A stretch of DNA of 41,666 nt from a virus (lineage: Duplodnaviria; Heunggongvirae; Uroviricota; Caudoviricetes): positions 1 through 41,666 of IMG/VR virus record IMGVR_UViG_2526164631_000048; one strand, given 5' to 3'. How positions within the stretch are numbered: position 1 is the first letter of the stretch; every line of letters starts with the position of its first letter. Below the pieces are notes generated by a model. It saw nothing but the letters and a program-made list of their open reading frames with translations, searched no databases and was not told where the DNA came from. The position numbers and the translations under genes are program-made. This document shows positions 8,472-12,400 of the stretch, piece by piece.

Positions 8472-9146
8472 TTAGGCCTTTATTTTGTATCTTCTTGGTT
8501 TTCCTGAGAAAATTACTGTACCAATTATAGAGCAATTACCGTTGATCTTAATGTAAGGTTCAGGCCAGTTTGGGTTTAATGCTTTGAGGTAACGCTGTGT
8601 TCCATCTTCTATCAACCGCTTAAAGGTGGTTTCGCCTGTATCGTGCATCAATGCAATAACGTCGTCACCGTGGCAGGCAGGGACTTCAGGATCTACAAAA
8701 ATCATGTCTCCCGGGCGGTACTCATCAATCATTGAATCACCAATCACCCGCAAGATATAAGTCATTTCGCCACAGGGTACAGGGCAGGGATAAGTTTCTG
8801 CTGTGCTCAAATCAACCTCAGAATAGCCAACTTCTTTCCATGCTCCGGCCTGTACCCATGATATGACAGGGACTAACGTTATTTGTTTGTTAGTAATTGA
8901 AACATCAGGTTTTTTTGTGATGTTTGTTGTCTGGTGTTCTTGATCAAGCCATCCGACAGGCAGGTCGAAACATTTTTCGATGTGCCGTGCCATGCTGTCA
9001 CCGATATTTTTAGTAGCACCATCTCCCATAAACCTGCTGGTCTGGGTTGGCTCGCGATCAATCATGGTGGCAAAGGAAGAATTCCCGCCAACACCATCTC
9101 TCAGTTTTCTGGCGTTAGACCGCCGGATGTCATGGACTGTTTTCAT
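8472..9146 (-). CDS. CI-like prophage repressor (HTH + LexA/S24 peptidase domain)
   Basis: 224 aa; C-terminal GDSM and K..D motifs of S24 self-cleaving repressors; divergent from cro-like gene. Confidence 0.8.
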   Translation of the reverse strand: MKTVHDIRRSNARKLRDGVGGNSSFATMIDREPTQTSRFMGDGATKNIGDSMARHIEKCFDLPVGWLDQEHQTTNITKKPDVSITNKQITLVPVISWVQAGAWKEVGYSEVDLSTAETYPCPVPCGEMTYILRVIGDSMIDEYRPGDMIFVDPEVPACHGDDVIALMHDTGETTFKRLIEDGTQRYLKALNPNWPEPYIKINGNCSIIGTVIFSGKPRRYKIKA

Positions 9147-9468: not shown

Positions 9469-10032
9469 ATGAGGCTAACCGTGGGTAAGCATCACTGGAA
9501 AGTAGAAAAACAGCCTGAGTGGTACGTGAAAGCTGTCAGAAAAACTATCGCGGCGTTGCCGGGGGGTTACGCTGAAGCTGCTGAGTGGCTGGATGTAACA
9601 GAGAACGCTTTATTCAACCGCCTTCGTGCAGATGGCGATCAGATTTTCCCGCTGGGATGGGCAATGATTTTACAGCGCGCGGCTGGCACTCACTACATTG
9701 CGGATGCTGTCGCACAGTCTGCTGGTGGGGTGTTTGTATCGCTTCCTGAAATTGAGGAAGTAGAGAACGCCGATATAAACCAGCGCCTGCTGGAAGTCAT
9801 CGAACAGATCGGGAGTTACTCAAAGCAGATTCGTTCGGCAATCGAAGATGGGGTAGCGGAGCCACACGAGCAGACAGCAATTAATGATGAGTTGTATCTG
9901 TCAATTTCGAAGCTCCAGGAGCATGCAGCACTGGTCTACAAAATCTTTTGCGCTCCAGAAAAGAGTGACGCCCGCGAGTGTGCAGCTCCGGGCGTCGTGG
10001 CGTTTTGTGTCTGTGGAGAAACTAACGCATGA
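9469..10032 (+). CDS. Hypothetical regulator at the CII position (possibly YdaT-like)
   Basis: 187 aa ORF directly after cro-like gene; family assignment uncertain. Confidence 0.4.
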   Translation: MRLTVGKHHWKVEKQPEWYVKAVRKTIAALPGGYAEAAEWLDVTENALFNRLRADGDQIFPLGWAMILQRAAGTHYIADAVAQSAGGVFVSLPEIEEVENADINQRLLEVIEQIGSYSKQIRSAIEDGVAEPHEQTAINDELYLSISKLQEHAALVYKIFCAPEKSDARECAAPGVVAFCVCGETNA

Positions 10033-10177
10033 ACAGTTTAACGGCAAATAACCGTTTGTCGCAACAGCTGGTGGTCAGCGTCGCTGAACACCTGTTGTTA
10101 CGGCATGAATGCAGATTACCAAATCACCTGGCTGTAAGTAACCACAGAGAACTTTACCTGACTGTGGGGGGCGAGTT

Positions 10178-10357
10178 GTGCAGGAACTTAACCGCTGGTT
10201 TCGTGACGGAAGAGGACTTTATGTTCATGTTATTCGTTGGGAGCCAGAAACACAGCGCGTTATCTATCTTCGCAAAGACTACCCGCATGAGTGCTTTAGT
10301 CCTTTGTGGAAATTCAGGCGTGATTTTGTTGAGTGTGAAGGACCACCAGCACATTGA
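10178..10357 (+). CDS. DUF4222-family small protein
   Basis: GTG start after G-rich RBS; WFRDGRGLYVHVIRWEPETQRVIY...ECFSPL pattern; sits in a different frame from the long ORF 10029..10865. Confidence 0.45.
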   Translation: MQELNRWFRDGRGLYVHVIRWEPETQRVIYLRKDYPHECFSPLWKFRRDFVECEGPPAH

Positions 10358-10631
10358 TTCTGCCATTCCGGGACGTTACACTGTTCAGGCACCTTATAAA
10401 GCGGGTGCCGGGATTGGCGTCCTGGAATTGATCAAGGCGATATATGACGCGCCAGCGTCTTTTTTATCGTCCGCATTTGCTCACATCAAAGTTATGGTGG
10501 GCTGGGCGGGGGCATCGAAAGATGCGCCGGTTTCCTTGATCACCGGTTACGCCAACCCCGTTCAGTTCACCACCAGCGAAATTGGCGTTTCCGGTGGTGG
10601 AAGTATTTCACCGATCAAGGAGGCTGCCATC

Positions 10632-10865
10632 ATGGCTACTGTCCCAGCCCTCACTCGTCTGAATGATGAAGACTTACATAAACTCAGTTATGTAACAACT
10701 GCACTACGTGCTCTGCGCAAGGTAACTCTTTCGGATCCCCAGGCGCATCAGGTTTTGGTAGAAACCCTTCTTAACTTGCAGGCTGAACGTATTCGTCTGG
10801 CGGATAAGGCTAATTTTCATATTCACCGTCTCCTGAATATCAGCGGAGGGCATCGTCATGCTTAA
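10632..10865 (+). CDS. Small hypothetical protein (77 aa)
   Basis: Strong AAGGAGG RBS 8 nt before ATG; stop overlaps next start (ATGCTTAA). Confidence 0.4.
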   Translation: MATVPALTRLNDEDLHKLSYVTTALRALRKVTLSDPQAHQVLVETLLNLQAERIRLADKANFHIHRLLNISGGHRHA

Positions 10866-11094
10866 TCCGTTGAGCCTCAATATTCGCCGTTTACTTCAGC
10901 GTAAAAAAACATCAATTCCTACAGTTGGGCAGTGGTACACCACGCCTGCAGGGCATGTTCTACGTGTTAGCCTGGTTGACCGTGAATGCCAGAAGGTGAT
11001 TTGTGAACCGCTGGGCCGTAATTACCGCGTCAGTATGCCGCTTATAGCCTTTCGCTCCGGAAAAAACATGAAGCATCTCGGAGGTGCAGCATGA
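10858..11094 (+). CDS. DUF4222-like small protein (paralog)
   Basis: WY..P.GHVLRVSLVDRECQKVICEPLGRNYRVSMPL pattern similar to 10178..10357. Confidence 0.45.
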   Translation: MLNPLSLNIRRLLQRKKTSIPTVGQWYTTPAGHVLRVSLVDRECQKVICEPLGRNYRVSMPLIAFRSGKNMKHLGGAA

Positions 11095-11909
11095 GTATGG
11101 AGCTGATGGTTAAAGCGATGAAAATTCGAGTGGGTAATCCATTGCGAAAACTGGTTCTGATCAAGCTGGCTGATAATGCCAGCGATCAGGGTGAGTGCTG
11201 GCCCAGCTATCAGCATATCGCTGATCAGTGCGAGATTAGCAAACGTTCTGTGATGAATCATATTGCGGCCCTCTGTGAGTCCGGGCTGGTAAAAAAAGTC
11301 ACCCGGAAAGGTGAAAAAGGTAACTCAAGTAATATCTATCTCCTTCATCTGGATGGTGCAGGAGATTCACTAGGGGGTAGTGCAAATAATTCACTATCTG
11401 GTGCAGCAAATTCACCAGGTAGTGCAGGAGTTGCACCAGGGGGTAGTGCAGGAGATTCACCCAGAACCAGTCACTCTTTTGAACCAGTCAAAGAACCAGT
11501 CAATGAACCAATAGCTGTTGGTGCATCAGTTGATGAGTCCGTGCGAGTTCGTTCAAACCGACCGGAATACTCTCCGGAGTTTGAGCAGGCATGGCTGGCA
11601 TATCCCAAACGTGCTGGTGGCAATTCAAAATCTGCAGCCTTCAAAGCCTGGAAAGCCCGTTTGAACGAGGGGGTAAACCCCGAAACCATGCTGGAAGGTG
11701 TGAAACGCTACGCGGGCTGGGTATCTGCGATGGGTAACAGCGGCACACAATTTGTGAAACAGGCTGTCACGTTCTTTGGTCCGGATCGTCATTTCGAAGA
11801 ATCCTGGGAAGTTCCTGCGATATCTGCAGCCAGACGCGAGGACCCGTACTTCAAAGCCAGTTACGACAACGTGGACTACAGCCAGATCCCGGCAGGATTC
11901 AGGGGGTGA
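11091..11909 (+). CDS. Replication initiator (O-like; N-terminal winged-helix DNA-binding domain)
   Basis: N-terminal LVLIKLADNASDQGECWPSYQHIADQCEISKRSVMNHIAALCESGLV; internal Gly/Ser/Ala linker encoded by iteron-like repeats. Confidence 0.65.
   Translation: MSMELMVKAMKIRVGNPLRKLVLIKLADNASDQGECWPSYQHIADQCEISKRSVMNHIAALCESGLVKKVTRKGEKGNSSNIYLLHLDGAGDSLGGSANNSLSGAANSPGSAGVAPGGSAGDSPRTSHSFEPVKEPVNEPIAVGASVDESVRVRSNRPEYSPEFEQAWLAYPKRAGGNSKSAAFKAWKARLNEGVNPETMLEGVKRYAGWVSAMGNSGTQFVKQAVTFFGPDRHFEESWEVPAISAARREDPYFKASYDNVDYSQIPAGFRG
11355..11515 (+). repeat. Iteron-like tandem repeats inside the initiator gene (candidate ori)
   Basis: Five imperfect ~20-bp repeats (ggtagtgcaggagattcac-like), then 3 perfect GAACCAGTCA 10-mers plus one degenerate copy. 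Confidence 0.55.
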
Positions 11910-12400
11910 TCATGAGTCTTTTGAATGAAGTTCAGAAATTCATTGAAGCCCATCCGGGGTGTACTTCCGGAGACATTGCGGATGCTTTTGCAGGTTACTC
12001 ACGGCAGCGCGTTCTGCAGTCAGCAAGCAAGTTACGTCAGAGTGGGCGTGTGGCTCACCGTTGTGAAGGAGATACACGCAGACATTTCCCACGCCTGACT
12101 GAGAGAGCGCAGGAGCCGGAACTACAACCAGTTCGTGAAACCAGACCTGTGCGCAATTTCTATGTCGGCACTAACGATCCCCGGGTGATTTTGTGCCTGA
12201 CCCGCCAGGCGGAAGAACTGGAGTCCAGGGGCCTATACCGTCGTGCTGCAACGGTGTGGATGGCGGCATTCCGTGAAAGCCACTCCCAGCCAGAACGAAA
12301 CAATTTTCTGGCGCGTCGTGAGCAGTGTTTACGGAAAAGCAGCAAGCGCGCTGTATCGGGTGATGAGTGGTATCTGTCAGGGAATTACGTGGGGGCTTAA
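11906..12400 (+). CDS. PerC-family transcriptional regulator-like protein
   Basis: C-terminal LESRGLYRRAATVWMAAF...RREQCL resembles PerC domain. Confidence 0.5.
   Translation: MIMSLLNEVQKFIEAHPGCTSGDIADAFAGYSRQRVLQSASKLRQSGRVAHRCEGDTRRHFPRLTERAQEPELQPVRETRPVRNFYVGTNDPRVILCLTRQAEELESRGLYRRAATVWMAAFRESHSQPERNNFLARREQCLRKSSKRAVSGDEWYLSGNYVGA

Follow-up and report, generated by a model that had tools for sequence, protein, structure and literature searches.

A probable replication origin inside the linker-coding part of the initiator gene of an SfV-type Escherichia coli/Shigella prophage

Do the tandem repeats inside the replication initiator gene of virus record IMGVR_UViG_2526164631_000048 (Caudoviricetes; all 41,666 nucleotides of the record were analysed and are referred to here as the window) act as DNA, or do they only encode a stretch of protein? 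The repeats lie at 11355-11514, within an open reading frame (ORF) at 11091-11909, and a first-pass annotation made from the sequence alone had proposed that they form a lambda-like origin inside the initiator gene. Our comparisons support this proposal through the position of the array, its co-variation with the recognition helix of the initiator, dyad symmetry, frame shifts and copy-number change among homologues, and a lambda control. We conclude that these repeats very probably serve an SfV-type prophage of E. coli/Shigella as its replication origin, located inside the linker-coding part of its initiator gene.

Five imperfect tandem repeats of about 20 base pairs (bp) had been described, and they are indeed present, as units of 21, 24, 21, 21 and 21 nucleotides (nt) that together span 11355-11462: GGTGCAGGAGATTCACTAGGG (unit 1, 11355-11375, 21 nt), GGTAGTGCAAATAATTCACTATCT (unit 2, 11376-11399, 24 nt), GGTGCAGCAAATTCACCAGGT (unit 3, 11400-11420, 21 nt), AGTGCAGGAGTTGCACCAGGG (unit 4, 11421-11441, 21 nt) and GGTAGTGCAGGAGATTCACCC (unit 5, 11442-11462, 21 nt). 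Neighbouring units, which we call iterons, are spaced 21, 24, 21 and 21 bp apart. As read from the sequence, they share the core GTGCA-N5-T(T/G)CAC, which forms a partial dyad (perfect in unit 4), and they are putative binding sites for dimers of the N-terminal domain (N-domain) of the initiator. Tandem Repeats Finder (TRF) reported arrays with periods of 21 and 22-24 at 11376-11461 and a 12-nt period at 11481-11510, and a separate repeat finder returned the same repeat families. Loose matches to the iteron core (15 nt, at most 4 mismatches) are not enriched across the whole window (15 compared to 10.7 expected) and their count is uninformative; the non-random feature of the iterons is five in-phase copies within 108 bp. 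It should also be noted that two small ORFs at 11299-11460 (- strand) and 11380-11514 (+ strand) are reading frames generated by the repeats and were rejected as genes.

Downstream of unit 5 the sequence continues, in order, with AGAACCAGTCAC, TCTTTT, GAACCAGTCAAA, GAACCAGTCAAT and GAACCAATAG. This segment holds the GAACC repeats (11464-11514, + strand). The 10-mer GAACCAGTCA occurs at 11464, 11481 and 11493 and is followed by GAACCAATAG at 11505, matching the three perfect 10-mers and one degenerate copy of the first-pass annotation; the spacing from copy to copy is 17, 12 and 12. The 41.7-kb window contains exactly three copies of GAACCAGTCA, all on the + strand and all inside 40 bp, compared to an expected count of 0.07 per window on both strands and no more than 1 copy in any of 300 first-order Markov simulations. 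Abutting the last iteron is a conserved 28-nt core box, AGAACCAGTCACTCTTTTGAACCAGTCA (11463-11490), which is marked by its conservation and by fixation of its codons. Judged by comparison among homologues, the GAACCAGTCA repeats form a separate and far more conserved element and are not degenerate iterons. They are a candidate unwinding or helicase-entry element.

Together, the repeats encode residues 89-142 of the initiator (GAGDSLGGSANNSLSGAANSPGSAGVAPGGSAGDSP RTSHSFEPVKEPVNEPIA), with the iterons occupying codons 89-124 of 272, between a winged-helix domain (residues 1-88) and a C-terminal domain (C-domain, from residue 160). The suggestion that they also encode the linker of the protein holds, as AlphaFold2 predicts this segment to be disordered between the two domains. 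One explanation is that the repeats are nothing other than a low-complexity Gly/Ser/Ala/Pro linker, which expands and contracts by replication slippage, and that their DNA has no function. The predicted disorder agrees with this explanation, as does the fact that all five units of the window are in one frame. Repeat copy number also varies between near-identical genes: the cdtI gene has three additional units, viral contigs with 2 or 7 units were found, and in protein clusters of 242-302 amino acids at ~90% identity the length differences correspond to multiples of the repeat.

We compared the window to two sets of homologous loci. The phage set consisted of 12 homologues, from 99% to ~50% identity, covering Salmonella, Aeromonas, Vibrio, Klebsiella, Pectobacterium, Morganella and E. 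coli. For the genome set, loci from different species were picked by N-domain peptide patterns only and the best 80 of 229 by N-domain similarity were used; iteron statistics were calculated for 62 loci from different gammaproteobacterial species. All 12 phage homologues carry two to eight tandem 21-24-bp repeats right after the winged-helix domain, and all 62 genome loci have tandem repeats after this domain (1 to 7 units, mode 4). The same was seen in the viral contigs with a linker that could be read, which make up 111 of 120 loci among the matches listed. Three remote homologues with 30-38% identity, which share the Pfam domain HTH_36, also place repeats after the winged-helix domain, for example D96a, with five copies of GGTGACAGAGAGTCACC, and PotUPM1, with CCCGCAGCAGCTGCACCC repeats.

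The repeat sequences differ between phage homologues, each of which has a dyad of its own. These are GGGGCAG-gag-CTGCCCC in F403 (iteron variant GGGGCAGGAGCTGCCCC of the Shiga toxin (Stx) phage Stx2a_F403), GTGTCAC-t-GTGACAC in mEp013, TGCCAT-ctg-ATGGCA in Klebsiella (array of the type TGCCATCTGATGGCA) and GTGACA-aaa-TGTCAC in Vibrio D67. Across the 62 loci, dyad symmetry was 5.03 of 8 paired positions, compared to 3.95 in shuffles (single-shuffle standard deviation 0.80). The spacing between neighbours was 21 bp in 76 cases, 22 bp in 24, 23 bp in 19 and 24 bp in 63, so that 43 of the 182 spacings (24%, counting only those of 21-24 bp) are 22-23 bp. Such spacings shift the reading frame from one copy to the next, so that the encoded peptides differ, as in mEp013 and Shewanella. 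Both the dyads and these frame changes argue against a repeat that is present only for the peptide it encodes.

The sequence of the repeat also follows the recognition helix of the adjacent domain. Iteron similarity was correlated with similarity of helix 3 and the wing (Mantel rho 0.56), compared to a Mantel rho of 0.11 with C-domain similarity. There were 158 pairs of loci that share an iteron type and have unrelated C-domains, and 0 pairs with a similar helix-wing and a different iteron. Per unit of column entropy, iteron class is best predicted by residues 49-55, where the recognition helix begins; equally variable N-domain positions elsewhere predict iteron class less well, and the C-domain assorts independently of the iterons. 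The comparison strongly supports the view that the repeats function as DNA and that their sequence is matched to the recognition helix of the protein. Lambda iterons behave alike: the same analysis of lambda recovered four dyad iterons with spacings of 20, 24 and 23 at codons 117-145 of the 299 codons of the gene. Taken together, these data leave very little room for a peptide linker whose DNA has no function.

If the repeats are sites for the initiator, they could still serve a purpose other than initiation. Iterons of iteron plasmids also act in control, and the iterons of the window might be cognate initiator sites for autoregulation, copy control or exclusion, with the origin elsewhere in the phage; that the region has no strongly AT-rich segment and no DnaA box would agree with this. 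However, the 41.7-kb window contains no other iteron-like cluster, and the array and the box are always coupled to the initiator gene, in at least 200 loci and whatever the neighbouring genes. Furthermore, the same arrangement has been shown experimentally to be the origin in lambda, where the iterons are annotated. We therefore regard a purely regulatory array, with an origin at another site, as improbable. No sigma-70-like promoter was detected in 10800-12200, so the repeats are not an obvious promoter or operator either. Terminator-like sites near the initiator were limited to a single weak one on the minus strand, which is within chance, and Rfam reported nothing in the repeat region, its only matches being to isrK and C4 RNAs 0.9 kb upstream.

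The box next to the iterons shows a different pattern of conservation. In 10 of the 12 phages, AGAACCAGTCACTCTTTTGAACCAGTCAA is found directly 3' of the last iteron with 0-2 substitutions, and the box is kept in this set although the upstream iterons and downstream C-domains are unrelated. Among the 80 species, the box is exact in 21, has one substitution in 12, two in 19 and three to six in 13, and was scored as absent in 15; hence 52 of the 80 species have a box with at most two substitutions. Nearly all loci scored as absent keep copies of AACCAGTCA in other frames, the exceptions being one locus with none (L174) and one truncated gene (L162). The exact box pattern occurs at no fewer than 120 loci (at least 120) in viral contigs. 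Among the matches listed, box-bearing viral loci belong to the initiator family wherever they are readable, apart from a few copies with truncations or frameshifts and three loci located at contig ends, and the MSM N-terminus of the family was recognised in 111 viral loci. The range of the box family covers Enterobacterales, Pseudomonas, Shewanella, Aeromonas, Vibrionaceae, Pasteurellaceae, Marinomonas and Halomonadaceae.

Across homologues, AACCAGTCA is read in all three frames, as T-S-H, P-V and N-Q-S. Shewanella has CCA GAA CCA GTC ACT (PEPVT) where the canonical frame is AGA ACC AGT CAC (RTSH), and the frame in Pasteurellaceae and mEp013 is AAC CAG TCA (NQS). Two frames are used in the window itself, in which GAACC copy 1 is read R-T-S-H and copies 2-3 are read E-P-V. 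We also compared codon use in 43 non-redundant homologues, measured as the probability that a pair of sequences agreeing in an amino acid also agree in its codon. This synonymous codon identity was 0.97 in nine box codons, which include the rare Arg codon AGA, compared to 0.43 in the best-conserved block of the N-domain, while amino-acid conservation was 0.86 for the box and 0.96 for the N-domain block. These values point to selection on the box at the nucleotide level, in a stretch where the peptide is predicted to be disordered.

The frame of the gene is affected at the same place in two loci, L136 (Pseudomonas bharatica) and L167 (Erwinia tracheiphila). At about nt 326-400, frame shifts precede the box and stops fall inside it (PEPVTLLNQ, then stop), leaving N-domain-only products of 119-134 amino acids. 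These shortened genes may be pseudogenes or sequencing errors. With units of 22-23 bp, as many arrays have, gaining or losing a copy could put the initiator into another frame.

A competing explanation for the box is that it is kept as a linear peptide motif (RTSHSFEPVxEP) contacting a host factor, as a recombination joint for C-terminal modules, or as both. Most homologues do keep the RTSHSFEPV frame. The box also lies at the boundary where C-domains are swapped, as seen in the 158 same-iteron pairs with an unrelated C-domain, and in an otherwise dissimilar E. coli gene (H185) the megablast match covers only nt 371-407 of the initiator gene. However, a peptide motif does not fit with codons that are fixed, the rare AGA included, while the amino acids of the box vary more than those of the N-domain. 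In the 12-phage set every readable box substitution changes the amino acid, and Shewanella, Pasteurellaceae and mEp013 retain the motif in frames other than the canonical one. Nor would serving as a joint be enough, in the absence of selection, to keep 28 nt unchanged from order to order. We therefore consider it unlikely that a peptide contact or a joint accounts for the conservation of the box. A role as a joint is compatible with origin function, and the two may well coexist; because the box is exactly where modules are exchanged, it is probably a recombination joint as well.

Another exchange point is seen at the end of the gene. The last 76 nt of the initiator gene (11834-11909), at the junction with a PerC-like gene (11906-12400), have a 96-100% match in ~1800 further E. 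coli genomes whose initiators are otherwise different, and these matches include K-12-type yfdN/yfdO loci. From this distribution, the 76-nt tail is, in all appearance, a second conserved mosaic joint.

With regard to what the box might do as DNA, the remote homologue PotUPM1 has four (A/G)GAACC copies at a 12-nt period, and the deeper common denominator of the box is a GAACC repeat with this period. The top strand of the box is A+C-rich, which gives it strand asymmetry, and the box occurs in a single orientation. Its strict conservation, single orientation and strand asymmetry suggest sequence-specific recognition. Since the box persists with every iteron class and every type of C-domain or partner, its recogniser should be common to all of them. 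Two candidates come into question: the N-terminal half of the initiator, which is invariant and would act on single-stranded DNA, and a host replication factor of universal occurrence. We tentatively propose, as a serious possibility that falls short of a favoured conclusion, that the box and GAACC 12-mers are an undescribed sequence-specific core origin element of a wide family of temperate phages of Gammaproteobacteria, recognised by a conserved partner instead of being a mere melting tract, and used as a module joint as well.

Duplex stability was calculated for the same region. When 61 homologues are aligned on the box, mean duplex instability within ±300 bp is highest over the first 45 bp counted from the start of the box (z 1.3-1.6), and a second, weaker instability minimum is located just upstream of the iterons (z ~0.95 at -150 to -120 from the box). 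In the window, the nearest-neighbour stability profile places the least stable 30-bp duplex of the region at 11312-11342, in the part of the gene that codes for the wing, where its role is putative. A classical AT-rich unwinding element was looked for and is not evident, the box region having 40-43% GC.

Several points weigh against the view that these repeats are the origin. The box in the window has about 40% GC (40-43%), compared to 22% GC for the AT-rich region of lambda, and is only at the 75th-87th percentile for instability. The DnaA box TTWTNCACA was found 0 times on both strands of the 41.7 kb, compared to 3.9 expected (standard deviation 2.0). Among the neighbouring genes, no helicase or loader gene (P- or DnaC-like) adjoins the initiator. 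The 80-locus sample is not uniform, as it was ranked by similarity to the N-domain of the window. The N-domain adjoins the iterons, so linkage could account for part of their co-variation; linkage alone is not enough to explain the asymmetry between the N-domain and the C-domain, because the C-domain is equally close to the iterons and does not co-vary with them. Finally, the passages found in one study of the replication regions called Eru in Stx phages describe the replication proteins of these phages as unstudied (PMC8951638).

Even so, we consider it likely that 11355-11514 is the core of the phage origin, at which winged-helix dimers would bind the phased iterons, the GAACC box would be the opening or helicase-entry site, and the C-domain would recruit the host helicase. 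From the sequence anatomy and its conservation we infer binding, opening and recruitment, which might proceed as follows. The N-terminal winged-helix domain, probably as dimers, would bind the five dyad-symmetric iterons. As the iterons are about two helical turns apart, they would present one face of the DNA, making possible a nucleoprotein complex like the 'O-some' of lambda. Such a complex would strain the adjoining DNA. The GAACC box (11463-11514), which is moderately unstable and strand-asymmetric, would then be the site of duplex opening, of the handling of single-stranded DNA or helicase, or of both. The exchangeable C-domain would recruit the replicative helicase; since the SfV type has no phage gene for a helicase or loader, this would have to be host DnaB, with or without DnaC.

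The gene that contains the repeats (11091-11909, + strand) encodes a 272-residue replication initiator of the type of SfV orf39 'replication protein', identified from its ORF, nucleotide identity, PHROG 270 and HTH_36. Nucleotide identity to orf39 of Shigella phage SfV is 99.4%, and it is 98-99% for the mEp460, cdtI and Ayreon genes and for those of Stx2c and Stx2a phages. The protein matches PHROG 270 'replication initiation protein' (1e-87 over residues 3-271) and passes the curated threshold of Pfam HTH_36 (PF13730; 1.8e-11, 44.1 bits against a cut-off of 25), whereas its score with Pfam DnaD_N is under the cut-off (24.3 bits against 27). There was no match to Phage_rep_O (PF04492), the lambda O family, even at E<=5, none to the Rep_3 (WH1-WH2) Pfam profile, and no relative in a sequence search of the PDB. 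The gene had been called 'O-like', which is apt for its function and architecture and does not apply to its family, which is HTH_36.

The coding region of the N-terminal winged-helix domain (residues 1-88) is at 11091-11354 on the + strand, and its predicted local distance difference test score (pLDDT) in AlphaFold2 is 82-93. The model has helices at 3-11, 17-29, 40-47 and 51-64 and strands at 67-73 and 79-85, with the recognition helix at about residues 51-64 and the wing at 67-85. Linker residues 91-157 have a pLDDT below 50, that is, predicted disorder. The C-terminal helical domain, an exchangeable module, is encoded from about residue 160 (11568-11909, + strand), with helices at 162-225 (pLDDT 70-77). 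Foldseek with the AlphaFold2 model gave only generic winged-helix matches (E >=0.012), among them the DnaD N-domain (2v79, E ~0.02), and the model of the C-domain is too poor for structural placement by this method. No Pfam or NCBIfam family, including the DnaB_2/DnaD C-domain, was detected in the C-domain. It matches PHROGs 26426, 3729 and 1701, which are annotated 'replication protein / DnaD-like helicase loader', and it presumably recruits replication machinery.

Upstream of the initiator are genes for a cI-type repressor (8472-9146, - strand), a CP76 cII-like protein and an Ash-family protein and a 78-residue ORF, and downstream are PerC-like, Dam and RusA genes. In some homologues (ZF40, phiV039C, F403 and Kp phi12.5), the next gene is a helicase or replication gene and is paired with a different C-domain. 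The conserved 78-residue ORF (10858-11094, + strand; PHROG 1153, of unknown function) overlaps the start of the initiator, and similar small ORFs precede the cdtI, ZF40 and IME1369_02 homologues; its product may be a co-factor of the replication module. Further upstream, inside the Ash-family ORF (10029-10865), Rfam reported matches at gathering level on the + strand to the Hfq-binding small RNA isrK (64 bits, 10389-10465) and to C4 antisense RNA (82 bits, 10490-10577). These matches suggest that this SfV-type prophage has a c4-type antisense element for immunity or antirepressor control, as in P1/P7.

The initiator gene is very common. Of 5426 complete E. coli genomes, 897 carry it with a coverage of at least 80% and 2718 show any match, and E. 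coli FDAARGOS_1059 has a 100% identical copy. Members of the family are also found on circular, non-mobilizable 'plasmids' of ~40 kb, namely those of Arsenophonus nasoniae (H117-H126, 28-104 kb and mostly 38-48 kb), H95, H97, H100 and locus L213. The Arsenophonus plasmids carry holin and lysozyme genes, which points to extrachromosomal phage-like elements. PLSDB types one plasmid of the whole group as rep_cluster_2302. As the plasmids are phage-like, we rejected their occurrence as proof that the module suffices for replication; in them, nature may have set up a test of autonomous replication driven by the initiator module.

The GenBank record of SfV has no origin annotated. The sequence of the box was not found in the literature searched, a search that did not include the published genome description of SfV or the review of phage replication modules by Weigel & Seitz, either of which could already note the SfV repeats. 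Within that scope, and apart from those two sources, the origin of this very common initiator family appears to be undescribed. The gene is carried by SfV serotype-converting phages, Stx2c phages and Stx2a phages of the 'Eru6' and 'Eru5' types, and replication of Shiga-toxin phages controls the dose of toxin. Placing the probable origin within ~160 bp would offer a recognition code that links recognition-helix class to iteron class, a minimal replicon that can be tested, and natural orthogonal pairs of initiator and iterons for compatible vectors. The box would show cleanly how selection on DNA can override the choice of codons in a disordered linker, which matters for annotators and for estimates of the ratio of non-synonymous to synonymous substitution (dN/dS). 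An origin at this position is, as such, what a phage specialist would expect; the conserved box of GAACC 12-mers is the interesting and unexplained part, and is worth an experiment.

How does this locus compare to systems already described? Replisome organizers of Gram-positive phages, such as SPP1 G38P and DnaD-like proteins, also have a winged-helix N-domain, and that of the window initiator resembles the DnaD N-domain (24.3 bits, and Foldseek match 2v79). The oriL repeats of SPP1 lie inside gene 38, the gene of the organizer itself, and some relatives of the window C-domain are annotated 'phage replisome organizer' or 'DnaD-like helicase loader'. In contrast to these organizers, DnaD_N is under its cut-off here, no DnaB_2/DnaD C-domain was detected, and the hosts belong to the Gammaproteobacteria. 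Iteron plasmids (Rep/TrfA/pi/RepA), whose iterons measure 17-22 bp and whose unwinding element holds 13-mer repeats, and the 13-mers of E. coli oriC resemble the locus in combining direct repeats at about two helical turns with short (12-13-nt) repeats beside them. In those systems the short direct repeats are opened and bound as single strands, which for the window locus is a conjecture drawn from the likeness. Iteron plasmids have an initiator of the Rep_3 type (WH1-WH2) and DnaA boxes, neither of which was found here, whereas the iterons of the window have an internal dyad and lie in coding sequence. By family, the locus does not belong with the iteron plasmids, and its resemblance to the replisome organizers is not enough to place it with them.

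Within Stx phages, the same gene occurs in the Eru6 and Eru5 regions: Stx2a_WGPS2, the Eru6 representative, has 98.0% nucleotide identity, and Stx2a_F403, the Eru5 representative, combines the GGGGCAGGAGCTGCCCC iteron variant with the same box. Llarena et al. classed Eru regions by gene content, and the region type of the window corresponds to their 'Eru6'; the passages found in these papers mention neither iterons nor an origin (PMC8044961, PMC8951638).

The closest parallel is with lambda O and ori-lambda and with the lambdoids 82, phi80, P22 (gene 18) and Stx phage 933W. There, as is probable here, the origin is in the linker-coding part of the initiator gene, and the linker separates an N-terminal DNA-binding domain from a C-terminal recruiting domain. 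Classic comparative work on lambdoid phages found iterons that are type-specific next to a right-hand segment that is common. In lambda, a less stable segment immediately follows the iterons, as a moderately unstable one does here. The lambdoid origins have four to six dyad iterons spaced 20-24 bp apart in varying frames (for Stx phages, PMC7466680), again as seen here among the homologues. The differences are that the lambda initiator belongs to Phage_rep_O and not to HTH_36, that a P-like gene follows it where a PerC-like gene follows here, and that lambda has an AT-rich tract of 22% GC in place of a sequence-conserved GAACC 12-mer box of 40% GC. On the strength of these comparisons, the locus can be regarded as a further case of a lambda-type origin inside the initiator gene, built around an initiator of a different family.

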